DNA from: an uncultured Microbacter sp.
GTDB lineage: Bacteria > Bacteroidota > Bacteroidia > Bacteroidales > Paludibacteraceae
Assembly: GCA_963678265.1 (NCBI GenBank)
Contig: OY782761.1
Location: 2,490,714 to 2,554,713, forward strand
DNA length: 64,000 nucleotides
Reading direction: 5' to 3'
The notes under the pieces are model-generated. The model made no database searches. It saw nothing but the letters and a program-made list of their open reading frames with translations, and was not told the DNA's origin. The position numbers were made by a program, and so were the translations under genes. Shown here one piece after another: positions 29,436-54,262 of the stretch; within the stretch, counting starts at the first letter, position 1; every line of letters begins with the position of its first letter.

Positions 29436-30455
29436 ATGGGATTATTTTCATTGACACAAGAGATCGCTATTGACCTGGGAACGGCCAATACGATTATCAT
29501 TCATAACGACAAGATCGTTGTGGACCAGCCTTCGGTGGTTGCCCTCGATCGTCGTACCGACAAACTGATTGCTGTGGGTGAACGTGCCCGTCAGATGCAG
29601 GGAAAGGTACACGAAGACATTCGGACTGTGCGTCCTTTACGCGACGGTGTGATTGCCGACTTCTATGCAGCCGAACTGATGATTCGCGGCATGATTAAGA
29701 TGCTGCAGACACAAAAGACTTTCTTCACCCCTTCGCTGAAGATGGTGGTTTGTATTCCTTCGGGTAGTACCGAAGTAGAGATTCGTGCTGTGCGCGACTC
29801 TTCGGAACATGCCGGCGGACGTGAAGTATATATGATTTATGAACCGATGGCTGCCGCTATTGGTATTGGCCTCGATGTTGAAGCTCCGGAAGGAAACATG
29901 GTAGTGGATATCGGAGGTGGTACAACCGAAATTGCGGTGATTTCGCTGGGTGGTATCGTAACCAACAAATCGATCCGTATTGCCGGTGACGATTTGACCG
30001 ATGACATTGTAGAATACATGGGTCGTCAGCACAATATGAAGGTGGGCGAACGCACTGCCGAAATGATTAAGATGAATGTGGGCGCTGCATTGACTTCGCT
30101 GGACGATGCCCCCGAAGATTTCATCGTGCGCGGTCCGAACCGTATGACGGCTCTTCCGATGGAGGTTCCTATTTCCTATCAGGAAATTGCCCATGCTCTC
30201 GATAAAACCATTTCAAAAATTGAAACGGCTGTGTTGAGCGCTTTGGAACAAACACCTCCCGAACTTTACGCCGATATTGTGAACAATGGTATCTACCTCG
30301 CAGGTGGCGGTGCCTTGTTGAAAGGCCTTGACAAACGTTTGGCCAATAAAATGAATATTCCATTCCACATTGCCGACGATCCTCTCCATGCCGTAGCGCG
30401 TGGTACGGGTGTTGCTTTGAAGAATGTAAACCGTTTCTCGTTCTTGTTGCGATAG
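29436..30455 (+). CDS. mreB: rod shape-determining protein MreB
   Basis: Actin-fold motifs IAIDLGTANT, DIGGGTTEIAV and LAGGGALLKGLD. Confidence 0.95.
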   Translation: MGLFSLTQEIAIDLGTANTIIIHNDKIVVDQPSVVALDRRTDKLIAVGERARQMQGKVHEDIRTVRPLRDGVIADFYAAELMIRGMIKMLQTQKTFFTPSLKMVVCIPSGSTEVEIRAVRDSSEHAGGREVYMIYEPMAAAIGIGLDVEAPEGNMVVDIGGGTTEIAVISLGGIVTNKSIRIAGDDLTDDIVEYMGRQHNMKVGERTAEMIKMNVGAALTSLDDAPEDFIVRGPNRMTALPMEVPISYQEIAHALDKTISKIETAVLSALEQTPPELYADIVNNGIYLAGGGALLKGLDKRLANKMNIPFHIADDPLHAVARGTGVALKNVNRFSFLLR

Positions 30456-30477
30456 AGAGCAACAATAAAAGTCAGGC

Positions 30478-31314
30478 ATGGAACAACTGTTGCGATTTTT
30501 GATGCGCTATGGGGTTTATTTCCTCTTCGTATTGCTGGAGTCAGTCTCTTTTGTCTTCGTTGTAAATCAAAATAGCTTTCAACGTGCCTCTTTTTTATCG
30601 TCGAGCAACTATATTTCCGCCTCGGTCTATTCTGCCGCCAATGCGGTGGTGGAATATTTCGGGTTGTCGGAAGCCAACCGTCAGTTGTCCGACGAGAATA
30701 ATCAACTTAAAAACAGGATGGTGAGGCTCGAAGCCGAACTTTCCCAGCTTACCGACACTACCGGCAGGCATCCTTTGGTGGTAGCCGACAAGGAGTATCA
30801 GTTTATCGCGGCTAAAGTAATCAGCAATAGTATCAATAAACTGAACAATTCCATTACGCTCAACAAGGGTCGTCTGGATGGTATCGAACCGGAGATGGGG
30901 GTTATCAACAATCAGGGTGTGGTTGGCATTGTAAGTGCCGTTACCGCTCATTATGCTACGGTTATTCCCATTCTCAATTCCAAATCACGCGTCAGTTGTA
31001 AGTCGAAACGCTCCGGCGATTTCGGCGTTTTGGTTTGGGACGGCATCGATCCCGATTATGTGCAGATGGAAGAGGTGCCGCGCCATGCGGTGATTCACCT
31101 GCGCGACACGTTGGTGACCAGCGGGTTTTCGTCTATCTTCCCCGAAGGTATTCCGGTGGGATATGTCTCCCGATGCTCTACCCCCGAAAACAAGAGTTAC
31201 TACGCTATCGAAGCGCGTACAGCCGCTGTGTTCCGTACGCTTTCGTATGTAAAAGTGGTGAAGTTTAAGTACAGAGAAGAGTTGCGCGAAGTGCAGAAGG
31301 AGGAAGATCAATGA
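30478..31314 (+). CDS. mreC: rod shape-determining protein MreC
   Basis: N-terminal TM, a coiled coil (NQLKNRMVRLEAEL), and a beta-barrel region with TSGFSSIFPEGIPVG. Confidence 0.9.
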   Translation: MEQLLRFLMRYGVYFLFVLLESVSFVFVVNQNSFQRASFLSSSNYISASVYSAANAVVEYFGLSEANRQLSDENNQLKNRMVRLEAELSQLTDTTGRHPLVVADKEYQFIAAKVISNSINKLNNSITLNKGRLDGIEPEMGVINNQGVVGIVSAVTAHYATVIPILNSKSRVSCKSKRSGDFGVLVWDGIDPDYVQMEEVPRHAVIHLRDTLVTSGFSSIFPEGIPVGYVSRCSTPENKSYYAIEARTAAVFRTLSYVKVVKFKYREELREVQKEEDQ

Positions 31315-31808
31315 GTACGAGTCTGGTGTTGAAACATACGATCCGTTTTGTCGTACTTGTACTTTTGCAGGTGCTGATTTTTAATAATATCCGGTTCCTC
31401 GGGTATGTCAACCCGATGATCTTTATCTTGTTTGTCATATCGCTGCCTACCGGGGTAAACCGTTCGGTTTCGCTGTTGCTGGCTTTTCTGATGGGCGGAT
31501 TGATCGACATCTTTTCCAATACGCCCGGGATGTATGCTTGCGCGACGGTTTTTGTGGCATTTATCCGGAAAGATTTGCTGCTTCTGTTCGTCCCCAAAGA
31601 TATGTATGCCGACTACGAACCTTCGGTAAAGGTGATGGGATTGCCCATTTTTCTGAAGTACGTTATCTGTATGATCGTGACGCTGCATCTCGTTTTGTTT
31701 ACGCTCGAAGCATTCTCTTTTCAACATTACTGGTTGGTACTTCTTAAAACAGGTGTGAATTCGGTAGTTACCCTGTTACTGGTGTTGAGTACTCAAAAAT
31801 TCAAATAG
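31311..31808 (+). CDS. mreD: rod shape-determining protein MreD
   Basis: 165-aa polytopic membrane protein. It overlaps the mreC stop by 4 nt and precedes mrdA. Confidence 0.8.
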   Translation: MSTSLVLKHTIRFVVLVLLQVLIFNNIRFLGYVNPMIFILFVISLPTGVNRSVSLLLAFLMGGLIDIFSNTPGMYACATVFVAFIRKDLLLLFVPKDMYADYEPSVKVMGLPIFLKYVICMIVTLHLVLFTLEAFSFQHYWLVLLKTGVNSVVTLLLVLSTQKFK

Positions 31809-31810
31809 GC

Positions 31811-33682
31811 ATGATCAACGATGAGCTGCAAAACCGAAAATACGTTATCGGTGGCCTGATAGCATTGATCATTCTGATCTTTATTGCACGCCTTCTTTTC
31901 CTTCAGGTTTTCACCGAGTCGTACAAAGAGTCGGCCGAAGGAAATGCCTTCCTCAAACGTACTATTTTTCCTCCACGCGGATTGATTTACGACCGTAACG
32001 GTAAATTGCTGGTCTATAACCGGCCATCGTACGACGTGATGGTTGTGATGAAAGAGGTGGCTGCGCTCGATACGGCCGATTTTTGCAACACCATAGGCAT
32101 GACCAAAGAGGAGTTCGTCGACCGGATGGAGGATATAAAGGACAAAAAGATCAATCACAACTACTCGCCCTTTACCCCACAGGTATTTATCAATCAGTTG
32201 TTGCCCGACGATTATGCCCGCCTGATGGAAAAACTGTATCGTTTTCCCGGTTTCAGTATTCAGCAACGCACCATTCGCGATTATGCCTACAATGCGGCGG
32301 CTCATGCCCTGGGCTCTATCGGCGAGGTGTCGCGTAACACTATCGAGAACGACGATTACTACAGAATGGGCGATTATATCGGTATTACCGGTCTGGAGAA
32401 GAGTTATGAGAAGGAGTTGCGCGGCGAGAAAGGGGTGCAGATTATGTTGCGCGATTCGCGTGGCCGCATCAAAGGACGCTATGCCAAAGGCGCTTACGAC
32501 GAAGAACCTGTTTCGGGTAAAACCCTGAAGCTGGGTCTCGATATCGATTTGCAAATGCTCGGCGAGCGGTTGATGAACGGCAAGCGGGGTAGTATTGTTG
32601 CTATCGATCCCTCTACCGGTGAAATTCTGGCTGTGGTGTCGTCGCCTACTTACGACCCTAAATTGATGGTGGGTCGTCAACGTTCGGCTATGTTCAAGGA
32701 GTTGAATTCCAATCCCAATAAACCGTTGCTCGACCGTACGGTGATGGCGCGTTACCCGCCGGGATCGACCTTCAAGGTGGCCAATGCGCTGGTGTTGCAA
32801 CAAAACGGAATTATTACCAGTGATACGCGTTATGCCTGCCACCGGGGGTATACGGTGGGTCGTTTCCATCTCGGGTGTCACGCGCACCCCTCGCCGTTGG
32901 ATCTGTATCATGCAATTGCTATTTCGTGTAATGCCTATTTCTGTGCCGGGTTGCGGGCCATGCTCGACAATAGCAAGTACAAAAATATTACCGAGGCCTT
33001 CAATACCTGGCGCGCCGATATTATGACTTTTGGCTTTGGTAAGAAGTTGGGAGTGGATTTGCCGCACGAAAACAGCGGAAGTATCCCTACCACCAAAGCT
33101 TACGACCGTATTCACGGTAAAGGGCGCTGGCGTTCGCTCAATGTGGTCTCTATCTCTATCGGACAGGGTGAAGTGGTGGCTACGGCCATGCAAATTGCCA
33201 ACCTTTGTGCCACGGTGGCCAACCGCGGACACTGGATTACCCCGCATATGGTGAAGAGCATTGAAGACGAACCGATTCCCGAGAAATATAAAATGGTGCA
33301 TACCACCCCTATTGATAAAAGGTATTACGATGTCTGTATCCGTGGTATGGAGCTGTCGGTGCTGGAGGGAACCTCCAAGGGCGGTCAGATACCGGGTATC
33401 GAACTTTGTGGAAAAACCGGTACCGCGCAGGATGGTGTTCGCAAAGACCACTCGGTGTTTATGGGTTTCGCCCCGAAATATCATCCCAAAATCGCCATCA
33501 TGTGTATCGTTGAAAACAGTGGATGGGGCGCTACCTATGCCGTGCCTATCAGTAGCCTGATGGTGGAGTATTATCTTCGCAGAAAAATTTCACCTTCGCG
33601 TCAGGGATTAATGGATAAAATGGAAAAGACAGTCTTGATACGTAACTATGGAACGCAGAATAAGGTTAGCACAGACGATTGA
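31811..33682 (+). CDS. mrdA: penicillin-binding protein 2 (elongasome transpeptidase)
   Basis: Transpeptidase motifs STFK (PPGSTFKV), SCN (AISCNAYF) and KTGT (GKTGTAQ). Confidence 0.95.
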   Translation: MINDELQNRKYVIGGLIALIILIFIARLLFLQVFTESYKESAEGNAFLKRTIFPPRGLIYDRNGKLLVYNRPSYDVMVVMKEVAALDTADFCNTIGMTKEEFVDRMEDIKDKKINHNYSPFTPQVFINQLLPDDYARLMEKLYRFPGFSIQQRTIRDYAYNAAAHALGSIGEVSRNTIENDDYYRMGDYIGITGLEKSYEKELRGEKGVQIMLRDSRGRIKGRYAKGAYDEEPVSGKTLKLGLDIDLQMLGERLMNGKRGSIVAIDPSTGEILAVVSSPTYDPKLMVGRQRSAMFKELNSNPNKPLLDRTVMARYPPGSTFKVANALVLQQNGIITSDTRYACHRGYTVGRFHLGCHAHPSPLDLYHAIAISCNAYFCAGLRAMLDNSKYKNITEAFNTWRADIMTFGFGKKLGVDLPHENSGSIPTTKAYDRIHGKGRWRSLNVVSISIGQGEVVATAMQIANLCATVANRGHWITPHMVKSIEDEPIPEKYKMVHTTPIDKRYYDVCIRGMELSVLEGTSKGGQIPGIELCGKTGTAQDGVRKDHSVFMGFAPKYHPKIAIMCIVENSGWGATYAVPISSLMVEYYLRRKISPSRQGLMDKMEKTVLIRNYGTQNKVSTDD

Positions 33683-35102
33683 TTGGTGGATCGTAGCACT
33701 CTACCTGATTATGATCATATTCGGGTGGTTCAATGTGTACGGAGCCAGTTACGACTACACCCAGGCCAACTTTTGGGGGTTCGAATACCGTTCGGGCAAA
33801 CAGTTGATCTGGATTGCCTGTGCGTTGGTTATCGCGGGATCTATTCTTCTGATAGACGGAAAGATATACGAGCAGATGGCCAATCTCGCCTATTGGGCTA
33901 TTCTGTTGTTGCTATTGGTTACCATCTTTATCGCCCCCAATATCAAAGGATCGCACTCGTGGTTAGTCTTCGGCCCCGTGAGTTTTCAGCCCTGCGAGTT
34001 GGCGAAGCTCTCCACGGCTCTTGCGCTGGGGAAATTTATCAGTAAAACCGGTTTCTCCATGAGTAACCGGAAAGACGCGCTTATAGCCTCGGGGTTGATA
34101 CTGTTGCCCTGTGCCCTCATTGTATGTCAGTCGGAGACGGGATCGGCATTGGTCTTTTTTGCCTTCTTTCTGATGCTTTACCGCGAGGGATTGCCCGGTG
34201 TCTTTCTGTTGGTGGCAGCCGGTATGGCCATTTTGTTTCTGATTATCGTTCCGTTGAGCGATATACCGGTCTATAATCATGTGGGATCGCTCGGTTTTAT
34301 GCTAGCCTTCCTCTTTATTCTGGCAGTGATGCTCGGCTGTGTACTTGCATACGAGGCCGACGGCACCACCATGTTGCATATTCTCGGAGGCACCGGCGTG
34401 TTGTTTGCCTTTGCCGGATTGCTGAATATCTGGTTCGACGTACAGTATCAGATTTTTGCCCTGATTGCCGTAGTGGGAGCAGCCTTTTACCTTATTTTTC
34501 TCTATCTCTACCGCAGCAAGCGTACCTATATCTGGGTGGCACTTTTTGCACTGGGTTCTATCGGGGTAAGTTTCTCGGTCGACTACTTTTTCGACCACGT
34601 GCTCGAACCTCACCAGCAGACCCGTATCAAGGTAGTGCTGGGCATGGAGAAAGATCCGAAAGGGGTAGGGTATAATGTAAACCAGTCGAAGATTGCCATC
34701 GGTTCGGGCGGATGGTTGGGCAAAGGTTTTTTGAATGGTACACAAACCAAACTGAAATATGTGCCCGAACAGGACACCGACTTTATCTATTGCACCATCG
34801 GCGAAGAGCATGGCTTTGTGGGGTCGGCCGGTGTGCTGCTGTTGTACGGACTTCTCTTCTACCGCATGATACGCATAGCCGAAAATCAGCGCGACACCTT
34901 TACGCGGGTCTATGCTTACTCCATAGTGAGTATTATGCTCTTTCACGTGCTGATTAACGTCGGCATGGTGCTGGGTATCACGCCTGTAATCGGCATTCCG
35001 CTACCTTTTTTCAGTTACGGAGGCTCTTCTCTCTGGTCGTTCACCGTTATGTTGTTTATTCTGCTGCGGTTGGATATGAGCCAGAAGGAACGTTTCAGGT
35101 AA
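33648..35102 (+). CDS. rodA: SEDS-family peptidoglycan polymerase RodA
   Basis: FtsW/RodA/SpoVE signature (PEQDTDFIYCTIGEEHGFVG, PLPFFSYGGSS). It overlaps the mrdA end by 35 nt. Confidence 0.9.
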   Translation: MERRIRLAQTIDWWIVALYLIMIIFGWFNVYGASYDYTQANFWGFEYRSGKQLIWIACALVIAGSILLIDGKIYEQMANLAYWAILLLLLVTIFIAPNIKGSHSWLVFGPVSFQPCELAKLSTALALGKFISKTGFSMSNRKDALIASGLILLPCALIVCQSETGSALVFFAFFLMLYREGLPGVFLLVAAGMAILFLIIVPLSDIPVYNHVGSLGFMLAFLFILAVMLGCVLAYEADGTTMLHILGGTGVLFAFAGLLNIWFDVQYQIFALIAVVGAAFYLIFLYLYRSKRTYIWVALFALGSIGVSFSVDYFFDHVLEPHQQTRIKVVLGMEKDPKGVGYNVNQSKIAIGSGGWLGKGFLNGTQTKLKYVPEQDTDFIYCTIGEEHGFVGSAGVLLLYGLLFYRMIRIAENQRDTFTRVYAYSIVSIMLFHVLINVGMVLGITPVIGIPLPFFSYGGSSLWSFTVMLFILLRLDMSQKERFR

Positions 35103-35223: not shown

Positions 35224-36010
35224 CATCGTCCTGCGCACACTTCCCTTTGCCTAAATGGAAGACTCTTTGAGTTTTATATTGTCTGAATTGAAAATCGACG
35301 TAGTCAAAGACGTCATTTCCATAACCGTATGCCAATGGCTTACGGATTATCAATGCCTCATTCTTCTATGCCTGAATTAAAAATCAGCGCAGCTAAAGGC
35401 ATTACTTTTAGTATAGTCCGACCTTTCAGGTCGTGTGAGTACAGGCTTTACTCACCCACAGGTCATAGACCTGCGGTTATGAAAATGAGGCTTTTCAAGC
35501 CGTTAGGCAAACTATAGGATACTCATATGTCTTCATCTTCTTCATTCCTTAATGGTGAAAGGTAAGCTCTTTTTGATATAACAATCAAGCCAACATTTGG
35601 TTGGTATTAGCTCCGCCCCGAAGAGCGGAGTTAGAATCCCATCTTATGGATGTGGGGGTCGAAATAAACCATTAAGGCATTAAGAAGCATTGAGACTTTC
35701 TGTTCCTCATTTTTTAATGGTGAAAGAAGATATCAAACCCATCGTCCTGCGGACACTTCCCTTTGTCAAAAGGGAAGACTAATCGGCTATTCTTTTAAGT
35801 AGCTTGTAAAAATGGGCCGAAATTTTGCATACAGTGGTGTCCCCTTTTGGTAAAGGGGACGAGCGTAGCGGAGGGGTTAGTAAGTAATATTATTTTTTAT
35901 AATTGCTTATCAGGTAGACATCTTTTGTGACTGAGATGTATTCGTATTGTTGTGATAATTGTATCTAACCCATCGTCCTGCGGACACTTCCCTTTATCAA
36001 AAGGGAAGAC
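35224..36010. repeat. dispersed ~40-nt hairpin repeat family (catcgtcctgcgSacacttcccttt-N4-aaagggaagac)
   Basis: Direct copies lie at 35224-35263, 35738-35779 and 35969-36010. A diverged inverted copy is at 35836-35878 (gtgtccccttttggtaaaggggacgagcg). Confidence 0.75.
35498..35726. repeat. composite ~200-bp intergenic repeat unit (H-S-H family), copy 1
   Basis: Module H (aaccattaagRcattRagNNgcatt...cttcatttcttaatggtgaaag) is degenerate at 35498-35561 and clear at 35668-35726. Module S (ggttggtattagctccgccccgaagagcggagttagaatccc...ggatgtggggg tcgaaat) lies between them. Confidence 0.8.
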
Positions 36011-36056
36011 TTAATCTGCGTTAGCGGTTGTGTATTGTGGTCGCAGGAACAACATT

Positions 36057-36116
36057 AACCATTAAACCATTGAGAAACATTTAGTCTTCATTTTCTTCAT
36101 GTCTTAATGGTGAAAG
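36057..36116. repeat. solo H module of the same repeat family
   Basis: Sequence aaccattaaaccattgagaaacatttagtcttcattttcttcatgtcttaatggtgaaag. Confidence 0.75.
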
Positions 36117-36184
36117 GTTCTATCGATCCATATGCAACATACAGACCTTTGTGTGCTATTTATAGTTTATAATTGATTCAAAGT

Positions 36185-37147: not shown

Positions 37148-37831
37148 TCAATAACCGATTCCATACTCCATGGTCAGTGCGGCCAATTGAGCGGCGTTGC
37201 GTGCGCCTAACTTTTGCATCATGTTATCGCGGTGTTTTTGAACGGTCGACAGCTTAATGCCGAGCAGTTCCGCAATTTTGAGACAGGTATTTCCTTTCAG
37301 AATAAGCTTCATTATCTCTGTTTCGCGCCTGGTAAGCAAATCGAAGTGGTGCTGGTAGCGGGAGCAGTGAATCTGGCGGAGCAACATACTCAATTGCGGA
37401 CGGTTGAGTTGGTTCGGCGTAAAGATATGCCCTATTACCACACGGCTGCTTGTCGTCTCTCCCGGGCGGGTAAGCAGCGCTTCCGATTGTTCCCAACAAT
37501 AGAACGGTTCGTTGCTCTGTGGAGTGTAAAAACGCCACAGGGTAGCGGCTGCCTCCTCCCGAATAGTGCTCTTCTTTTCTGTTTTCAGACTGACAATGCA
37601 CTCTGCCTTGTGGTTGATGTTGCTACCCGAATAGATGTCGGAGTCGATCCGTTTCAGATCCTCTTCGGAATATCCCAACAGGGAGAGTCCGTAGGGGTTC
37701 ATCCACTCTATCGTCCATTTGTCGGAACGAGCTGTTGTTGCTTTCGACTTTATATAGATAATTGCCGGAACCGTATCGACAATCTTGCGCAACCATTTCA
37801 GTTCGTGGGTCGTCTCTTTGCGTTGATTCAT
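37148..37831 (-). CDS. PAS-like sensor / LuxR-type HTH transcriptional regulator
   Basis: C-terminal LuxR HTH (LTRRETEIMKLILKGNTCLKIAELLGIKLSTVQKHRDNMMQKLGARN). The N-terminal 150 aa are PAS-like. Confidence 0.8.
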   Translation of the reverse strand: MNQRKETTHELKWLRKIVDTVPAIIYIKSKATTARSDKWTIEWMNPYGLSLLGYSEEDLKRIDSDIYSGSNINHKAECIVSLKTEKKSTIREEAAATLWRFYTPQSNEPFYCWEQSEALLTRPGETTSSRVVIGHIFTPNQLNRPQLSMLLRQIHCSRYQHHFDLLTRRETEIMKLILKGNTCLKIAELLGIKLSTVQKHRDNMMQKLGARNAAQLAALTMEYGIGY

Positions 37832-38106: not shown

Positions 38107-38398
38107 AATCCGTACGATGCAAGCGTGCATCGTAACAAAACAAGCAAACATTGTACGGATGCAAGGATGAATTGCAACAATGCAAGCTTACATCGTGAGG
38201 ATGCAAGCGTGAATCGCAACAATGCACGTTAACATCGTTCGGATGCAGGCATGAATCGCAACAATGCAAGCAAACATCGTACGGAAGCAAGGATGAACTG
38301 TAATAATGCACGCTTACATTGTACAAATGCAGGGATGAATCGCAACAAAACAGGCTTGCATCGTACGAATGCAGACGAACATCGCAACAAAGCAGACC
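38107..38398. repeat. tandem array of 7 x 42 bp (14 alternating 21-bp half-units)
   Basis: The anchor caTYGT recurs at 38149, 38191, 38233, 38275, 38317 and 38359, an exact 42-nt spacing. The second half-site gaatcgcaacaatgca sits 21 nt out of phase. Confidence 0.9.
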
Positions 38399-38616
38399 GG
38401 TTTCCGGCGCTATTCGATAAACGGGGTAGGGATGCGAAGGTGTGGCGCGACGACGCGGCAATGAAACGATACGAATCGAGATATAACTTTATATTCAGTA
38501 ACTACGAAACAGAAAAAAACTACCGGTGTAGCTACCGAGAACCGAAGGGCGGACAGCGCAACTGTTGTCGGCCCATCACCAACAATATTGTATGTTTAAC
38601 TTTAATTTTTTCTATT

Positions 38617-39231
38617 ATGGCTAGAGAACATGTTTTGCTCGATTTTATCCGCTATCCGGTTATCGAAAAGATAAGCTTTTGCGATACAGTGCATGATCGG
38701 ATGACCGACAATCCGTTTTTTCTGACTCCGGATGTGCTGATGACAACCCTCAAGACAAAGAACGATGCTTTGAGAGCCGCGTATGGTGCTGCTCAGAAAG
38801 GGGGCCGGGAAGAGACCGTGCTGATGCATCAGGCCGAAGACGAATGGGATGATATGATGCGTAAAGAGGCGGCTTATGTCGATCGCATTGCCGATGGCGA
38901 CGGAGCCATTATACTGAATGCCGGGTTTAATACGACAAGAGAGCGTATGCCGGTACAACGGGCCGAGTTTACCGTAAAGCAGGGTGATAAATCGGGTTCG
39001 GCGCAGCTACGCCGCTTAGCGGTAAAGGGAGCCACCGCCTATATTTGGCAATACTGCAAAGATCCGGTTCCGATGGACGAGAGCGCGTGGATTACGGCCA
39101 GCACTACGGCGCAATCGACCGCTATTATTGGCGGCCTTACACCGCTTACACGTTACTGGTTTCGGGTGGCTGCCGTAACCCGGCAGGGAACCACCGACTA
39201 TACCGGCCCCGTGCTGCTGGCTGTTGTGTAA
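38617..39231 (+). CDS. hypothetical protein with a C-terminal fibronectin type III-like domain
   Basis: First ATG after the repeat array (MAREHVLLDF). The C-terminal ~90 aa carry an FN3-like pattern (AYIWQY...W...IGGLTPLTRYWFRVAAVTRQGTTDYTGPV). Confidence 0.55.
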   Translation: MAREHVLLDFIRYPVIEKISFCDTVHDRMTDNPFFLTPDVLMTTLKTKNDALRAAYGAAQKGGREETVLMHQAEDEWDDMMRKEAAYVDRIADGDGAIILNAGFNTTRERMPVQRAEFTVKQGDKSGSAQLRRLAVKGATAYIWQYCKDPVPMDESAWITASTTAQSTAIIGGLTPLTRYWFRVAAVTRQGTTDYTGPVLLAVV

Positions 39232-39260: not shown

Positions 39261-39300
39261 AAGGGGGCTTTCTGCAAAGGAGGCCCCCTTTGTTGTTGTC
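39261..39300 (+). terminator. Rho-independent terminator after the FN3-like gene
   Basis: The stem aagggggc/gccccctt is followed by a T-rich tgttgttg tract. Confidence 0.5.
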
Positions 39301-39876
39301 GGGCCTCAATTGGGTGTAGATAGTTTTTGTTAGGTGTTCGGTCGAAATTAGTAAAGAAACCGTATAAAAAAGTGCATTTTTGTGTGAGAATGTTATTTTA
39401 CTATTAAATATTATAAGTATGTTTGCAATGTTAAAAGTTAAACTGTGAGACGTGCTTAACGACGAACCGGCTGAAATGCAGTGAATACCGTGTATTTACT
39501 GGGGTTTCGGACGATCGGAGAATTAAAAAGATTTTTTTATTGCAGGAGTATAAAGATTATAAAAGTTCGTCAAACGGGGGCTGTGTTGAACGGAGGAAAG
39601 AAAAAATAGTGTATGGTATGAGCACAGAACAGAGCTGTGGGTTGGCGAGGGAAAATGTAATCGATCCTGTTGATGTGGAATAAAATATTTATAACTAATT
39701 TGCAGTATTAATTTTTCATTCGTTTGATTGTAATTGTAAATTACTTGGGTTATGGATACAAGATATTACTTGACCAGATTTACAATAAATGGAACAAGTT
39801 TAAGAAAGAAGGTATATCTATTTGAAATGAGTCTTATAAATTATCAATACAGTTAAATGCTATAAAATAAATATGT

Positions 39877-40275
39877 ATGGAAGAAAATAACAAGAAGATG
39901 TTTTTGGGTCTTTATCAAATGCTATTAGCTGATGCTGAAGTTCATCCTAAAGAGTTAGAATTACTTTATCAGATAGGAAAAGAAAAAGGCAACATTACGG
40001 AAGAAGAAATTCAGATTGCAATCTTTTCACCTAACACATTTATTTCTTTAGATAGTTTGAGTAATGATGAACGAATAGAATATCTATATAATCTATCTCG
40101 TATTGCTTGGGCAGATGGCAAAATTGATGAAAAAGAAAAGAATATTTTACAAGATGCAAGTCTACGACTTGGATTTGCAGAAGAAAATTCAAAAGAAATA
40201 GCCGATTTTCTTTTACAGCAAGCCAAAGAATATAAGTCATTTGACGAAGTACTACAAATAATAAAACATTCATAA
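39877..40275 (+). CDS. TerB-like (tellurite resistance TerB / DjlA N-terminal type) domain protein
   Basis: 132 aa. Two helical half-repeats carry the TerB signature (LLADAEVHPKELELLYQIG and IAWADGKIDEKEKNILQDASLRLGF). Confidence 0.7.
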   Translation: MEENNKKMFLGLYQMLLADAEVHPKELELLYQIGKEKGNITEEEIQIAIFSPNTFISLDSLSNDERIEYLYNLSRIAWADGKIDEKEKNILQDASLRLGFAEENSKEIADFLLQQAKEYKSFDEVLQIIKHS

Positions 40276-40277
40276 AT

Positions 40278-41540
40278 ATGGCACTTAAAGATATATTTAC
40301 AATTCAAAAGCCTATTCCAACTGAATTTAAAATACAAAAAGTAAATTCTGATGATTCAATTGCTGTTATTTCAGGAGCTTCATACACAGCACGTGGGACA
40401 AAAGATGCTGGATATTGTGGTGGTTCTTCTCAAGCGCTACTGCCAAAGTTACATGCTGTATATATGCAGCTTACAAGGTATATTCAGCAAGATGACATGA
40501 AACAATATGAACGAAAAAATGAAATAAGACAAGAAATAGCTATTATAGAAGCCCGAAAAGTTAATACCGAAAACGGAATCAAAATTGAACAAGAAAAATT
40601 AAATCACGAAGAAAAAAAGATTGAAAAAATTATCAATGAAATTGATGAAATTAAAGAGAATCCAAAAATTGTCTCTGGAGACTCATTTGCCAAAACAAGT
40701 TTTTTTATTGGCCTAGCGATAATTACATTTCTTACGATTTATTTGTTTGTCTTTTATAGCTCAGCTGCATATTCTGCATTTTTTAAAAATTTCACGCCTG
40801 ATGATACAAAAATTACTCAAGCTATTTTTGATGCGAATGCAATAGCCAAAGCTTGGGCTGATGGATTGACAGAGTTAGTTTTTATTATTGTTATTCCTGC
40901 AGTGTTTTTGGGATTAGGATTTTTGATATATAAGTTTTTAGAAGAAAAAAGCAAAGCTAAATATTTTAAAGTTGTTAGTTTGATTCTTGTTACGTTTGTT
41001 TTTGATTTTATTATAGCCTATGCGATTGTTAAAGAAATTTATAATATAAGAATAGGAGAATTATTTCAAGAAATGCCCCCAATGACTATTGGGAGAGCCT
41101 TTCAAGAAGTAAATTTTTGGATAATTATTTTTGCAGGTTTCGTTGTTTATATTATTTGGGGGTTAGTGTTTAGTTTTACAATGAATGAATATGAGAAGAT
41201 GGATAATATTAGGTATGCGATTAAAAATAAAGAGCAAAAATTAATAGAATACAAAACTGAATGTAAAATTATAAAGGAAAAAATTTCAATACTTCAGACT
41301 GAAAAGAATAATATCCAAGGTCAAATAGACAAATTAAAAATACAAATCGAATCTTATGTCCTCTATTTTAATGACGTGAGAGAAGGTATTAATAACTACT
41401 TTACAGGTTGGGTTGGATATTTAAAATCTACAGTAGCACCACAAATACAAGTAGATGAGTGTGAACACATCAAAGAAAAATTTCTAATTGAAATTAAAAA
41501 TTCTGATTTTATTAAGTCATCCTCAATATCTAATAATTAA
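40278..41540 (+). CDS. hypothetical 4-TM protein flanked by coiled coils
   Basis: 420 aa. N-terminal soluble and coiled-coil region (EIAIIEARKVNTENGIKIEQEKLNHEEKKIEKIINEIDEIKE), four hydrophobic helices, and a C-terminal coiled coil (KIIKEKISILQTEKNNIQGQIDKLKIQIES). It starts 2 nt after the TerB-like stop. Confidence 0.6.
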   Translation: MALKDIFTIQKPIPTEFKIQKVNSDDSIAVISGASYTARGTKDAGYCGGSSQALLPKLHAVYMQLTRYIQQDDMKQYERKNEIRQEIAIIEARKVNTENGIKIEQEKLNHEEKKIEKIINEIDEIKENPKIVSGDSFAKTSFFIGLAIITFLTIYLFVFYSSAAYSAFFKNFTPDDTKITQAIFDANAIAKAWADGLTELVFIIVIPAVFLGLGFLIYKFLEEKSKAKYFKVVSLILVTFVFDFIIAYAIVKEIYNIRIGELFQEMPPMTIGRAFQEVNFWIIIFAGFVVYIIWGLVFSFTMNEYEKMDNIRYAIKNKEQKLIEYKTECKIIKEKISILQTEKNNIQGQIDKLKIQIESYVLYFNDVREGINNYFTGWVGYLKSTVAPQIQVDECEHIKEKFLIEIKNSDFIKSSSISNN

Positions 41541-41545
41541 TAATC

Positions 41546-42427
41546 ATGAAAATAAAATATTTGTTTTTTATTGTAACTATTGCGGTGGTTTTTATTTCTT
41601 GTGGGAAGAAGAAAGAGAATAAGATTAATTCTTCCACAACACAGAAACAATTAAATATATCAATCCTTTTAGATTTATCCGACAGAATAAATCCACAAAA
41701 AAATCACGATGTACAAGTATTTGATATTGAAAATATCAAAACAATAACTGAATATTTCAAATCAAATATGTCAGATTTAGGTGCTTACAACGCAAAAGGG
41801 AAAATCAGAGTTTTTTTTAGTCCTCCACCGTCAAATCCCAATATAAATGCTATAGTAACCAAATTAAATATTGATTGTTCTATGCTGGATAACAAAAAAA
41901 GAAAACATGTGTATGATACTATTACAGAGCTTTATCAGAAATATTTAAACGAGATTTACAAAGAAGCTATTGCTACAAGTGCTTGGAAAGGTAGTGATAT
42001 TTGGCGTTTTTTTAAAGATGATGCTAAAGATTTTTGTGTTTCGAATGATACTACTTATCGTAATATTCTTATTATTCTTACTGATGGTTACCTTTATCAT
42101 AAACAGTCTCTGTTTAATCATAAAAACAGATACACTTATCTTTTAGGAAATACTAATTTGATGCAATACAGAAATAAAAATTGGGAAAAAATGGTTGAAC
42201 AAAATGATTTTGGAATTTTGACAGCATGCAATAATTTGAATAATTTGGAAGTTTTGGTTTTAGGTATTAAAGCAGAAAATCCAAGTCACAAAATAGACGA
42301 AGATATTTTGCAATTTCTATGGAAAAAGTGGTTTAAAGAAATGAATATTGCTCATAATGAAGCATATCACTTAGATTTGCCAGCAAATACAAAAACAAGA
42401 ATTGAAAACTTTTTAAAATCTAAATAA
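41546..42427 (+). CDS. hypothetical lipoprotein, possibly with a vWA-like fold
   Basis: Lipobox VFISC. A beta-strand plus acidic motif ISILLDLSDR and a later ILIILTDGY resemble the vWA MIDAS DxSxS and TDG strands, though the MIDAS is imperfect. It starts 5 nt after the upstream stop. Confidence 0.45.
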   Translation: MKIKYLFFIVTIAVVFISCGKKKENKINSSTTQKQLNISILLDLSDRINPQKNHDVQVFDIENIKTITEYFKSNMSDLGAYNAKGKIRVFFSPPPSNPNINAIVTKLNIDCSMLDNKKRKHVYDTITELYQKYLNEIYKEAIATSAWKGSDIWRFFKDDAKDFCVSNDTTYRNILIILTDGYLYHKQSLFNHKNRYTYLLGNTNLMQYRNKNWEKMVEQNDFGILTACNNLNNLEVLVLGIKAENPSHKIDEDILQFLWKKWFKEMNIAHNEAYHLDLPANTKTRIENFLKSK

Positions 42428-42591: not shown

Positions 42592-42599
42592 TACATTTG
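42592..42599 (+). promoter_or_regulatory. -7 box (TAnnTTTG)
   Basis: tacatttg lies 13 nt upstream of the ATG at 42612. Confidence 0.35.
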
Positions 42600-42611
42600 A
42601 TTTATAGAACT

Positions 42612-43052
42612 ATGAAAAAGATAATACTGGTATTAGCTTGTTTACTGATCGTTGTATCTGCCGTAGCTCAGGATACTATCCGATATACAACGATTAGTCT
42701 GAATATGCGGAAAGATGCCAATGCCTCTTCATCTATTGTGGCAACATTACCGCAAGGTACCTCTGTCGCCGTTGCCAAAGATTGTGATTGTCAATGGATA
42801 TTAATCTCATATAAAGGCAAGAGTGGTTATGTTGCGTCAAAATATCTTTCACATAATCAACCTGCACAATATCACCATAGTTCATCACATCACTCTTATA
42901 CAAATTCAGAAGGAGTAAAAGTTCAGTCTCCTACACACTACAAATCAGCACCAGCAGGTGCAACTGCTTTATGCAGGGATGGTACCTATAGTTTCAGTCA
43001 GCATCGTAGGGGCACTTGTTCTCATCATGGTGGCGTGTCAAGATGGCTTTAA
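42612..43052 (+). CDS. secreted SH3b-domain plus DUF3761-domain protein
   Basis: Signal peptide, an SH3_3-like region (LNMRKDANASSSIVATLPQGTSVAV...GKSGYVASKYL) and a C-terminal DUF3761 motif (CRDGTYSFSQHRRGTCSHHGGV). Confidence 0.65.
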   Translation: MKKIILVLACLLIVVSAVAQDTIRYTTISLNMRKDANASSSIVATLPQGTSVAVAKDCDCQWILISYKGKSGYVASKYLSHNQPAQYHHSSSHHSYTNSEGVKVQSPTHYKSAPAGATALCRDGTYSFSQHRRGTCSHHGGVSRWL

Positions 43053-43415
43053 ATTCTCCGTCCCGTTGGATTTATTTCTTGCGATCATGATTATTAATTA
43101 GCAACCGCTGTTTATTAATTGCAAAAAAACGATGGTATGGAATGTAAAAAAATATGATCCGGAAAGTATTGCAATCTCTCATCCCCTAGCGCGGGTCTCC
43201 TGACCCGTGTTACTTATAAAAGAAAAGTGAGTATGGCAATGGACACAGAGCAGAGCTCTGCGCCAGCAAAGGCCAGCAAGGAATATGAGTTAAAGTGGAG
43301 TAAATTTATGATTGTGAGGTTGATTAATACATTAGATCTGAATATCCGGCACCATTAATATAAAACTGAATATAATCCTTGATATATTATGCGCTAATCT
43401 ATTAAATCTATCATC

Positions 43416-44324
43416 ATGACAAATTATGACAATTTAGACTTCCGTAAATTTACAAGTCGTAGTGAAGCAGATAAGGCTATTCATTCTTTGAAAGGTATTT
43501 TATTGGGCATCAACTTTGATGAAATTATTAATGACAAGGAAATTCTTGAACTAAATAATTGGTGTAGTAAACATCAGGATTTGATTAACAGAAATCCATT
43601 CCGAGAGTTTATGACCCTGATTAAACAATCAATTCAGGATTCATCCTTGCGTAAGGATACATTGGAAGATCTATATTGGCTATGTCAAAAATATGAATCA
43701 GATAGTTATTATTATCAGGTAACCACAAATGATATTCAAACTTTACAAGGTATTTGCCATGGTATAATTGCTGATGGTGTGATTAAAGATATAGAAATTT
43801 ATAGATTGAATAAATGGTTAGAGGACAATCAACACATGACATCTTATTATCCTTATGATGAAATTAGATGTCTTGTTATGTCAGTCTTAAGTGATGGGAA
43901 AATTGATGATGAAGAACGAACAAGATTGCTTGCATATTTTAATGAATATTCAAATATAGCTACCGAGACTATTTTGCATGAAATTGAAGAAAAAATTGCA
44001 TCTACTAATATCGCAGGTATTTGTACTGTTGATCCGCAAGTTGAATTTTGTAATAAAACCTTTTGTTTTACTGGTGTTGCCAAAAGTGGAACAAGAGATG
44101 ACTTAATTAAGATTGTTACCAATTATGGGGGTATCTATAATGATAATGTTATTAAAAGTACGGATTATCTAATTGTAGGTGATAACGGAAATCCTTGTTG
44201 GGCATTTGCTTGTTATGGAAGAAAAGTAGAAAAGGCAATTTCTATGCGCAAGAAAGGTTCCCGTATTTCGATTATACATGAATTTGATTTTTGGGATTTT
44301 GTTGAAGACTATCATGCCTCATAA
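43416..44324 (+). CDS. TerB-like repeats fused to a C-terminal BRCT domain
   Basis: TerB-type motifs IIADGVIKDIEIYRLNKWL and VLSDGKIDDEERTRLLAYF. The C-terminus is LigA-type BRCT (FCFTGVAKSGTRDDLIKIVTNYGGIYNDNVIKSTDYLIVGDNG). Confidence 0.65.
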   Translation: MTNYDNLDFRKFTSRSEADKAIHSLKGILLGINFDEIINDKEILELNNWCSKHQDLINRNPFREFMTLIKQSIQDSSLRKDTLEDLYWLCQKYESDSYYYQVTTNDIQTLQGICHGIIADGVIKDIEIYRLNKWLEDNQHMTSYYPYDEIRCLVMSVLSDGKIDDEERTRLLAYFNEYSNIATETILHEIEEKIASTNIAGICTVDPQVEFCNKTFCFTGVAKSGTRDDLIKIVTNYGGIYNDNVIKSTDYLIVGDNGNPCWAFACYGRKVEKAISMRKKGSRISIIHEFDFWDFVEDYHAS

Positions 44325-45682: not shown

Positions 45683-45797
45683 TACGAATTACGGGTGTTA
45701 ACGTCAGCTATCCTGTTCAGCGTAGCGTGTAAGCAGATTGGGGTTCGGTGTAGGGATGGCCACACGATACGAGAAAGAGAATAATAGAAATGTATAA

Positions 45798-46044
45798 ACC
45801 ATTAAGGCATTGAGGAGCATTAAGGCTTTATATTCTTCATTTCTTAATGGTGAAAGATAAGGGCGCTTTTGTAATAACAATACAAACATCTCAGGGCTAA
45901 AGCCCCTGCTGCGGTTGGTCTGTAGTAGCTCCGCCCTGAAGAGCGGAGTTATAATCTTATCTTGGGGATGTGGAGATCGAAGTAAACCATTAAGACATCA
46001 AGGGGCATTAAGTCTCTATGTTCTTCATTTCTTAATGGTGAAAG
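45798..46044. repeat. composite H-S-H repeat unit, copy 2
   Basis: H modules lie at 45798-45856 and 45985-46044, with an S module (tagctccgccctgaagagcggagttataatc...ggatgtggagatcgaag) between them. Confidence 0.85.
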
Positions 46045-46314
46045 AAAGGTTTTAGCCCCGCTTCAGCGTGAGCCATGCAACCGACAGCGACGAGCGGGCT
46101 GATTTATGATAGGACCTTCAAGGTTAGGTATATAGTATATAAGGCAGTAGTTTTGAACTGAAAAATCAGAGAGGACAAACCCGGCCACACGGGAGAACCC
46201 GTGCGGCAGCGATGAAAGACGATTGTCGATTAAGACACACATCGTCTTTTGTCTTGTCTGTTCGGGAAAATTCATGATTATTAATTCATCTATATAAACG
46301 CCATTAAATAAGCT

Positions 46315-53849: not shown

Positions 53850-54262
53850 TCTTCATTTTTTAATGATGAAAAAGGCTTTTTTGAGATAGCTTTCGTTGTG
53901 ATAATTAAGTCATTCATGGCTAAAAATCAACATCTTGTCGGTTGGTATAGCTCCGCCCTGAGGACGAAGTTATAATCCCATCAGGTGGATGTGGAGATCG
54001 AAATCAACCATTAAGACATTAAGAGACATTCAGTCTTTATGTTCTTCATTTCTTAATGGTAAAAGAAAGGCTCTTTTTGAGGTAGCTTTCGTTGTGACAA
54101 TAAAGCCATTCAGGGCTAAGGCCCAATATTTTGTCGGTTGGTATTAGCTCCGCCCTGAGGACGAAGTTGTAATCTCATCATGGGGATATGAAGATGAAGA
54201 TAAACCATTAAGGCATTAAGGGGCATTGAGCCTTCATTTTCTTCATTTCTTAATGGTAAAAG
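53850..54262. repeat. two tandem composite H-S-H repeat units, copies 3 and 4
   Basis: H modules lie at 53850-53873 (partial), 54006-54065 and 54203-54262. S modules lie at about 53942-54005 and 54135-54202. Confidence 0.85.

Follow-up and report, generated by a model that had tools for sequence, protein, structure and literature searches.

TerB, a four-helix membrane protein and a vWA-like lipoprotein in a conserved Bacteroidota operon: a candidate uncharacterised membrane-acting defence or stress module

In tellurite-resistance (ter) loci the protein TerB is encoded together with the membrane protein TerC and with TerY and TerF, which are von Willebrand factor A (vWA) proteins. TerY and TerF have been described as forming sub-membrane structures on the cytoplasmic side (PMC7824862), and two validated defence systems, Shango and Bunzi, likewise contain TerB (bioRxiv 10.1101/2022.05.11.491447; PMC10250203). 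A further system, Dionysus, consists of DinA (MAEBL and transmembrane (TM) regions), the TerB-like DinB and DinC, which is alpha-helical and pore-like and has four TM segments; in Pseudomonas the system stops jumbo phages while the host is not lysed (bioRxiv 10.1101/2025.09.30.679545). Here we describe a three-gene operon, which we refer to as the triad, from a 64,000-nt stretch of the genome of an uncultured Microbacter sp. (contig OY782761.1, positions 2,490,714 to 2,554,713; hereafter the window). Its genes, g1, g2 and g3, encode a TerB protein, a predicted four-TM protein and a predicted lipoprotein with a vWA-like fold. We take the triad to be, most probably, a module for defence or stress that acts at the membrane and has so far not been characterised, and we give a probability of roughly one half to the reading that it is membrane-acting defence against phages or other mobile genetic elements.

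The three genes follow one another on the forward strand, g1 at 39877-40275 (132 aa), g2 at 40278-41540 (420 aa) and g3 at 41546-42427 (293 aa), with gaps of 2 nt between g1 and g2 and 5 nt between g2 and g3. An earlier model reading of this DNA, made from its letters and here called the original prediction, had proposed this compact arrangement and had described the segment as more AT-rich than its surroundings. Both points are borne out by the coordinates of the open reading frames (ORFs) and by the computed composition, the GC content of the triad being 28.3% (g1 30.1%, g2 28.7%, g3 27.1%) as compared with 43.7% for the entire window and 48.9% for the mre/rodA region upstream of the triad (29436-35102). 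These are real genes and not chance ORFs, given their length in DNA of 28% GC, the more than 1,400 homologues found for g2 and likewise for g3, and the preservation of the order g1-g2-g3 in about 72 of 80 loci across different Bacteroidota orders.

Those 80 loci come from a scan with a g2 profile of one genome per species from 185,579 species, of which 423 hold a relative of g2. The best 80 loci were examined, and they belong almost entirely to Bacteroidota, with Bacteroidales, Chitinophagales, Flavobacteriales, Cytophagales and Sphingobacteriales represented. A full-sensitivity search returned 796 clusters of g2 proteins at 50% identity, and among the best 150 of these nearly all are about 400-430 aa long, with a few shorter and apparently truncated. 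Members of the g1, g2 and g3 families are present in 72, 79 and 76 of the 80 loci, respectively, always in the order g1-g2-g3 and on one strand, and most incomplete triads lie at contig ends; the co-occurrence in other genomes that the original prediction presupposed is therefore real. Spacing is tight, with mostly 1-4 nt between g1 and g2 and anything from a 4-nt overlap to about 23 nt between g2 and g3. The surroundings vary, every other gene family being limited to at most 20 of these loci.

Three observations argue that the triad has spread horizontally, extending to the family a signature that had been claimed for the window only: in 71 of 72 loci its AT content exceeds that of the flanks (mean difference 6.1 points), its insertion sites vary among genomes, and copies labelled Lentimicrobium, Prolixibacteraceae, Saccharicrinis and Flavobacterium are 74-78% identical to one another. 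Together with the conserved gene order this points to a horizontally mobile operon of patchy distribution in Bacteroidota.

Some individual loci deserve mention. In one of them (L073) a triad of 31% GC sits within a flank of 60% GC, and the metagenome-assembled genome (MAG) UBA7688 holds two separate copies (L041 and L048). The g1 gene is internally deleted in L060, and it is absent beside intact g2 and g3 in L069 and L073. Four loci carry MAG labels from outside Bacteroidota, namely Citrobacter freundii (L049), Treponema (L050), Acidobacteria (L068) and Ignavibacteriaceae (L056); the flanking gene families of the first are common to Chitinophaga loci, which suggests mis-binning of L049 and not true presence in another phylum.

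TerB domains contain two helical repeats, each with an acidic pair of the form A-D-(G)-x5/6-E that is thought to bind a metal or other ligand. The g1 protein matches the Pfam TerB family (PF05099) with 34.2 bits against a cut-off of 24.4 bits (E 3.4e-8), in an alignment that covers only its C-terminal half (aa 60-107). Both acidic motifs are nevertheless there, ADAEVHPKE with D19 and E26 (39928-39954, forward strand) and ADGKIDEKE with D80 and E87 (40111-40137, forward strand), and the two pairs are kept in at least 95% of 78 orthologues. As sequence prediction gives neither a signal peptide nor a TM segment, the protein should be cytoplasmic. The earlier description of g1 as TerB-like with two helical motifs can accordingly be sharpened, and g1 is a bona fide stand-alone TerB-domain protein of the cytoplasm.

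The g2 protein had been described as having four TM helices with a coiled coil on either side, and this picture holds. Hydrophobic segments lie at about aa 141-169 (TM1), 197-218 (TM2), 233-251 (TM3) and 282-300 (TM4), forming a core encoded at 40698-41177 on the forward strand, with a helical or coiled-coil arm N-terminal to it (aa ~33-137) and a coiled-coil or helical domain C-terminal to it (aa ~300-407). The AlphaFold2 (AF2) model is all-helical, with a mean predicted local distance difference test (pLDDT) score of 80, and contains an 80-residue helix that runs from TM4 into the C-terminal domain. The TM core is the best-conserved stretch, with the intramembrane D243 and Y160, S161, S162, E199 and P207 invariant, as are G212, K219, W281, G287 and W294. 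The loop between TM2 and TM3 contains five Lys or Arg residues among 14, so by the positive-inside rule both termini should be cytoplasmic, which makes g2 a predicted inner-membrane protein with both coiled-coil arms in the cytoplasm. Beyond coiled-coil noise, such as a match to LmuB in PADLOC (E 0.007), no family in Pfam, NCBIfam, PADLOC or PHROGs was matched by g2; a profile search of the PDB gave coiled-coil noise only, and Foldseek searches of the PDB and BFVD with the model returned only the coiled coils of dynein, SMC and Rad50. The similarity to pores or ion channels that the original prediction had thought worth looking for did not materialise, the alpha-pore-forming toxins ClyA, AhlB, XaxB and MakA matching the model at non-significant Foldseek E values of about 0.6-1.3, which speak neither for nor against a pore-toxin fold. 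Judged by its sequence, g2 founds a new membrane protein family.

The g3 protein begins with a lipoprotein signal peptide whose lipobox is FIS-C19 (41546-41602, forward strand), with Lys-rich sequence after the Cys, and Cys19 is at least 90% conserved. Its AF2 model has a pLDDT of 87.2 and a predicted template-modelling score of 0.84, and when compared with the PDB by Foldseek nearly all of the top 50 matches are vWA domains (best E 1.7e-4), among them those of factor B, SpaC, integrin beta-I, vWF-A1, CMG2 and TFIIH p44. Since the template-modelling scores of these matches are only 0.3-0.5, the fold is a divergent one. Sequence searches are silent by comparison: g3 itself has no Pfam vWA match, the vWA models of Pfam are not significant in any of 32 family members (one touches VWA_2 at E 0.2), a profile search of the PDB gave nothing at E<=10, and Pfam, NCBIfam, PADLOC and PHROGs yield only coiled-coil or signal-peptide noise, with no match in PADLOC. 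One UniRef relative (P0149) is labelled 'VWFA domain-containing'. The vWA assignment, predicted from the model, thus holds at the level of the fold only.

A similar picture emerges for the metal ion-dependent adhesion site (MIDAS) of vWA domains. The motif DLSDR follows strand beta1 at the MIDAS position (41672-41686, forward strand), and D43, S45 and R47 within it are invariant, which means that the third Ser has been replaced by an equally invariant Arg (DxSxR as opposed to DxSxS). At the end of a central beta strand lies T179-D180-G181 (42080-42088, forward strand), with D180 and G181 invariant, and D180 matches the position of the last MIDAS Asp of vWA domains. The canonical pattern DxSxS...T...D is hence not found in g3, in which the last Asp corresponds to D180 and the Thr position is not assigned. 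The lipoprotein form also contains two invariant Cys residues, C111 and C164, which would fit a disulfide in the periplasm, as both are lost in the fused form described below. We consider g3 to be a periplasmic lipoprotein with a modelled, divergent vWA-like alpha/beta fold and a non-canonical MIDAS. Of the vWA lipoprotein originally predicted, the lipobox and the predicted fold have stood; no vWA match at the sequence level and no canonical MIDAS were found.

When the triad is set beside known systems, Dionysus is its closest architectural analogue, with no homology detected. Both are three-gene operons in which a small TerB protein is immediately followed by a helical protein of about four TM segments with coiled-coil flanks; both have a third, membrane-associated component, and both are accessory cassettes of patchy distribution. 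With the DinB and DinC sequences from Table S1 of the Dionysus study (bioRxiv 10.1101/2025.09.30.679545), homology was rejected, the g2 profile matching DinC with an hhalign probability of 0.3% and g1 matching DinB with a BLASTP E value of 3.3. The TM segments of DinC are rich in Gly and Ala, whereas those of g2 are rich in aromatic residues and contain the invariant buried Asp; its third component, the MAEBL/TM protein DinA, is encoded first, while the vWA-like lipoprotein g3 is encoded last; and Dionysus is found in Gamma- and Betaproteobacteria, in contrast to the triad in Bacteroidota. As Dionysus has been published, the concept of TerB working with a membrane protein is not without precedent.

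The ter loci likewise encode TerB beside an integral membrane protein and one that has a vWA fold, and they too are mobile and implicated in resistance to phages or stress. The triad differs from them in having no TerC, no TerD, TerZ, TerA or TerE, no TelA and no nucleotide-metabolite biosynthesis genes; g2 is unrelated to TerC, and g3 is an exported lipoprotein with a degenerate MIDAS while TerY and TerF are on the cytoplasmic side. TerC, TerD, TerZ and TelA were found neither in the window nor among the top 25 families reported for 148 neighbours from other loci, and a classical terZABCDE operon was rejected, with no TerC- or TerD-family gene nearby and none conserved around the triad. Shango (TerB, an ATPase and a helicase) and Bunzi (a TerB protein with TM helices, and a partner) resemble the triad in that TerB is the presumed membrane-surveillance part of a small defence operon; their partner proteins are entirely different, the triad having neither helicase nor ATPase. 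A vWA-MoxR-VMAP system was also rejected, as no ATPase family is conserved beside the triad (AAA_5 occurs in 3 of 148 neighbours). A scan with the system models of PADLOC-DB v2.0.0 (2023) gave a weak match of g1, over its TerB region, to the TerB-containing candidate PDC-S48 (E 5.6e-4); no model was matched by g2 or g3, and those of Shango and Bunzi were unmatched by all three proteins. The statement in the original prediction that the module fits neither the ter layout nor any named system stands as regards the 2023 PADLOC models and the lack of TerC and TerD, but has to be qualified by the published Dionysus analogue. By analogy, the triad would seem to resemble TerB-plus-membrane-effector systems and to be a member of no named one.

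Independent support for joint action of g2 and g3 comes from natural fusions. A tblastn search of plasmids with g2 identified a 704-aa 'hypothetical protein' on plasmid pSP2_2 of Runella sp. SP2 (locus L084:7554-9668, corresponding to NZ_CP031032.1 57373-59487), and further fusion genes were found at L087:1801-3915, L089:1793-3925 and L085:10001-12250. The fusion proteins are 704-749 aa long, and an extra, fifth TM helix joins their g2 and g3 parts. In the Runella protein, residues 45-416 align to nearly all of g2 (hhalign 99.2%, E 2e-19) and residues 471-702 align to g3 (97.6%, E 2.6e-12), with the DLSDR motif and the DG pair retained and C111 and C164 both absent; a hydrophobic helix at about 441-465 stands in place of the lipoprotein signal. 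Such a Rosetta-stone fusion argues that g2 and g3 are functionally linked. It also fixes the topology independently, as a cytoplasmic C-terminus of g2 followed by one more TM helix would place the vWA-like domain in the periplasm. We note that the L089 fusion is split again, into 519 and 186 aa.

The genomic setting of the fusions is that of conflict loci. In the Runella locus the gene order is cmr3-6, csx2, WYL, fusion, primase-polymerase, cas2, cas1, which is a type III-B CRISPR-Cas arrangement, and two related metagenomic loci (L087 and L089) are arranged in the same way. The 46%-identical fusion in L085 has as its neighbours a TraG/VirD4 coupling-protein gene, a SIR2 gene and the gene of a caspase-TPR giant. 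No TerB gene was found in any fusion locus. On this evidence g2 and g3 appear to form one trans-envelope unit that has been recruited to conflict loci.

Type III CRISPR-Cas systems have membrane-bound ancillary effectors, such as the CARF-TM protein Cam1, Csx23 and CorA. Genes containing vWA or TM regions have been linked to CRISPR loci (PMC10910872). The fusion resembles these effectors in its position between a WYL regulator and the adaptation genes, which is the usual effector site, and differs from them in having no recognisable CARF, SAVED or other cyclic-oligoadenylate sensor (a Pfam scan of the 704-aa protein found no CARF and no SAVED domain) and in being confined to a single lineage. 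The triad in the window differs further in not being linked to CRISPR and in having TerB instead. We tentatively propose, while thinking it rather doubtful, that g2 and g3 are an unrecognised trans-envelope effector into which TerB plugs on hundreds of Bacteroidota chromosomes and type III-B CRISPR-Cas with WYL, in the fused form, on Runella-type plasmids. If true, the fusion would be a new CRISPR-associated membrane effector lacking CARF and SAVED, and the first defence effector dependent on a periplasmic partner, implying immunity that acts on or senses periplasmic events such as DNA injection. The fusion within CRISPR-Cas loci is for us the most interesting lead. Two other genes of these loci may be recorded here. 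About 5.7 kb upstream of the Runella fusion lies a separate CARF-domain protein (Cas_APE2256; L084:718-1836) with a weak LRRFIP match of coiled-coil type (E 0.009), and just after cas1 there is a TOTE conflict-system protein with DUF7017, S1CSD-TOTE-1/2 and TPR domains (L084:13844-15313 and L087:8072-9550).

Around the unfused triad the neighbours are heterogeneous, and those that recur in particular lineages are also of kinds seen in conflict systems. In about ten Chitinophaga-type loci (L057:5071-7519; L033, L034, L037, L038, L041, L049, L060, L065 and L069) genes for a caspase (Peptidase_C14), a TIR+FGE-sulfatase protein and a DUF1508 protein lie directly upstream on the same strand, separated by 19-53 nt, and may form with the triad an extended operon containing classic conflict-system domains. 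Downstream there are SNase lipoproteins in 11 loci and EEP nucleases as three neighbours, while HSDR_N proteins lie upstream in some loci, and restriction-modification genes and several PADLOC PDC candidates are also among the neighbours. The association of the triad with defence islands is, in sum, only suggestive. A TPR histidine kinase and a LuxR-type response regulator are encoded upstream in 20 of the 80 loci. In Flavobacteriales and Chitinophagales this pair recurs at a distance of 2-5 kb, and the genes that separate it from the triad vary (examples are L008:3744-6143, L028, L032, L046, L054 and L057).

The operon structure, its conservation and mobility, the g2-g3 fusion, the conflict-type neighbours and the TerB precedents together make a defence role plausible. 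In the mechanism that we envisage, the three proteins would form one complex across the inner membrane, part of it extending into the periplasm. The g2 protein would oligomerise, probably through its cytoplasmic coiled-coil arms; g3 would work physically with the periplasmic loops of g2 (aa ~170-196 and 252-281), as a periplasmic sensor or as an anchor of the complex; and g1, its acidic ligand- or metal-binding pairs intact, would be a cytoplasmic sensor or regulator that docks on the arms of g2. Either TerB on the cytoplasmic side or the vWA-like domain on the periplasmic side, or the two together, might sense a perturbation of the envelope, and the signal would switch the four-TM bundle, with Asp243 within it, to an ion-conducting or membrane-disrupting state that aborts the infection or blocks entry of DNA. 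That TerB takes part in the complex, what the trigger is and how the effector acts are things that we only infer.

Several points weigh against a defence function. The CRISPR association is that of one closely related lineage, whose members are 70-93% identical to the Runella protein, and neither CARF nor SAVED was recognised in the fusion. That TerB touches g2 we infer from adjacency alone, and three loci keep g2 and g3 intact although their g1 is deleted or degraded. With Foldseek and PADLOC, g2 was not significantly similar in structure or sequence to a known pore, channel or defence effector, and the family was not found in IMG/VR viral contigs or in GenBank phages. Many neighbours of the triad are housekeeping genes, for example those for PEPCK, GAPDH, SurE and RNase PH. 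Finally, the low GC content could stem in part from a protein composition rich in Lys, Asn, Ile and Phe, and not from recent transfer.

The alternative that survives best, which we regard as possible though on the unlikely side, is that the triad copes with envelope or metal-ion stress and has no specific antiviral purpose. In the cytoplasm TerB would then bind a divalent metal or small ligand, g2 would conduct ions or metals or act as a scaffold for remodelling of the membrane, and in the periplasm the MIDAS-like site of g3 would bind a metal or an envelope component, in analogy to TerB-TerC and TerY/TerF of tellurite-resistance loci. Conservation of the TerB acidic pairs, the invariance of D43, S45 and D180 in g3 and that of the intramembrane D243 in g2 would all be in keeping with this, an invariant intramembrane Asp being typical of ion-binding TM proteins. 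The kinase and LuxR pairs of other loci, together with a PAS-LuxR one-component regulator upstream of the triad in the window (37148-37831, reverse strand), would suit a stress regulon, and both the frequent housekeeping flanks and an AhpC/thioredoxin-like lipoprotein encoded near the triad in the window sit well with such a role. Its patchy occurrence, AT-richness and variable sites argue instead for a dispensable mobile accessory and not for a part of core homeostasis, and TerC, TerD, TerZ and TelA are missing from the window and from the families reported for its neighbours elsewhere. The replacement of the third MIDAS Ser by Arg is a further difficulty, and the fusion in a CRISPR-Cas locus and the caspase and TIR genes in Chitinophaga are hard to square with metal homeostasis.

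The obligatory periplasmic partner, fused to g2 in some genomes, would be unusual for a cytoplasmic abortive-infection sensor, and it is this feature that brings in entry or superinfection exclusion, an explanation that we judge unlikely. Here g3 would bind a phage or conjugation component as it crosses the periplasm and g2 would block translocation of DNA through the inner membrane, with no killing of the cell and with TerB tuning the activity. The vWA fold is a protein-protein adhesion module, which would suit such binding; one fusion homologue lies directly after a TraG/VirD4 gene in an apparent conjugative element; the SNase lipoproteins and EEP nucleases encoded downstream of some triads could attack periplasmic DNA; and the TerB-containing analogue Dionysus protects without killing the cell. 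That conjugative context is, however, the single one seen, the family was not found in the collections of phages and viral contigs, where exclusion genes are common, and no similarity to known exclusion proteins was detected.

Membership of a named system (terZABCDE, Shango, Bunzi, Dionysus or vWA-MoxR-VMAP) is very improbable, the shared TerB component, the weak PDC-S48 match of g1 and the layout reminiscent of DinB-DinC being outweighed by the lack of PADLOC-2023 matches for g2 and g3, the failed comparisons with DinC and DinB, a third gene for a vWA-like lipoprotein and not for an MAEBL/TM protein, the different gene order and phylum, and the absence of a helicase or ATPase (as in Shango), MoxR or TerC/TerD conserved nearby.

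Whichever function is correct, the family is a sizeable one, with about 800 clusters at 50% identity and 423 species genomes, and two of its three proteins are without a family model in Pfam, NCBIfam, PADLOC or PHROGs. Catalogues of defence systems, which have been built mostly from Proteobacteria and Firmicutes, give poor coverage of Bacteroidota and of the gut Bacteroidales among them. If the triad is a defence or exclusion system, it would bring to three the independent cases in which TerB is paired with a multi-TM helical protein, would strengthen the idea of TerB as a general membrane-surveillance sensor and would add a periplasmic component to TerB modules. The fusion offers a directly testable connection of type III CRISPR or adaptation modules with a new candidate membrane effector. 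Should it be a stress or metal module instead, it would still represent a new membrane family partnering TerB, with Asp243 as a target for mutation.

Turning to the DNA around the triad, a terminator-like hairpin with a 13-bp stem and a T-rich tail (39261-39290, forward strand) closes the upstream gene and appears to mark the 5' boundary of the triad transcription unit. It is followed by an AT-rich intergenic region of 586 nt (39291-39876, forward strand; 32.3% GC), in which the operon's promoter and leader presumably lie. A motif of about 30 nt (GTATGG..ATG..CACAGA.CAGAGCT) occurs on the forward strand at 39606-39640, about 215 nt upstream of g1, and again at 43231-43257, about 170 nt upstream of a TerB-like/BRCT gene; it was not found in the other 80+ loci and may represent either a regulatory site particular to this host or the edge of a cassette. 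Scans of the triad region for tRNA genes and Rfam families gave no match.

The original prediction had placed the triad between repeat elements and had counted a second, BRCT-fused TerB protein next to it as evidence for a system, and neither point could be upheld. A family of dispersed intergenic repeats of about 63 nt, AAACCATTAAGRCAT...TTCTTAATGGTGAAAG, has five copies in the window (35666-35694, 36055-36117, 45795-45857, 45983-46045 and 54202-54230), and these do not directly flank the triad; they bracket the segment from 36 to 46 kb of the window, and were rejected as island boundaries since a copy also lies elsewhere, at 54202. The neighbour at 43416-44324 (forward strand, 302 aa) has a BRCT domain, and its TerB-related match is sub-threshold only (DUF533, E 0.0097), while over its full length it matches the phage family phrog_3989 (E 3e-80). 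Of the window neighbours compared, namely the SH3-DUF3761, TerB-like/BRCT, AhpC-like, fn3-like and PAS-LuxR genes and that for a TM2 protein, none is linked to the triad in other loci, the sole signal being weak generic matches of the LuxR family. Neither the repeats nor the BRCT/TerB neighbour belongs to the system, both being local to this genome.

Two further neighbours complete the picture. At 42597-43052 on the forward strand, 170 nt downstream of g3, lies a gene whose product, 151 aa long and secreted, contains a bacterial SH3_3 domain and DUF3761; no terminator was predicted between it and g3, and it may be co-transcribed with the triad in this genome, although it is not conserved with the triad. 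Upstream, a tandem repeat array with periods of 21, 42 and 84 nt (38111-38397; about six copies of 42 nt, 76% matches) runs into the 5' part of the ORF at 38251-39231 and overlaps an antisense Cys/His-rich ORF, and the true start of the 326-aa gene formed by the former may be downstream of the array. The product of this gene is fn3-like at its C-terminus and weakly matches a PHROGs family of phage major tail proteins (E 1.9e-4).

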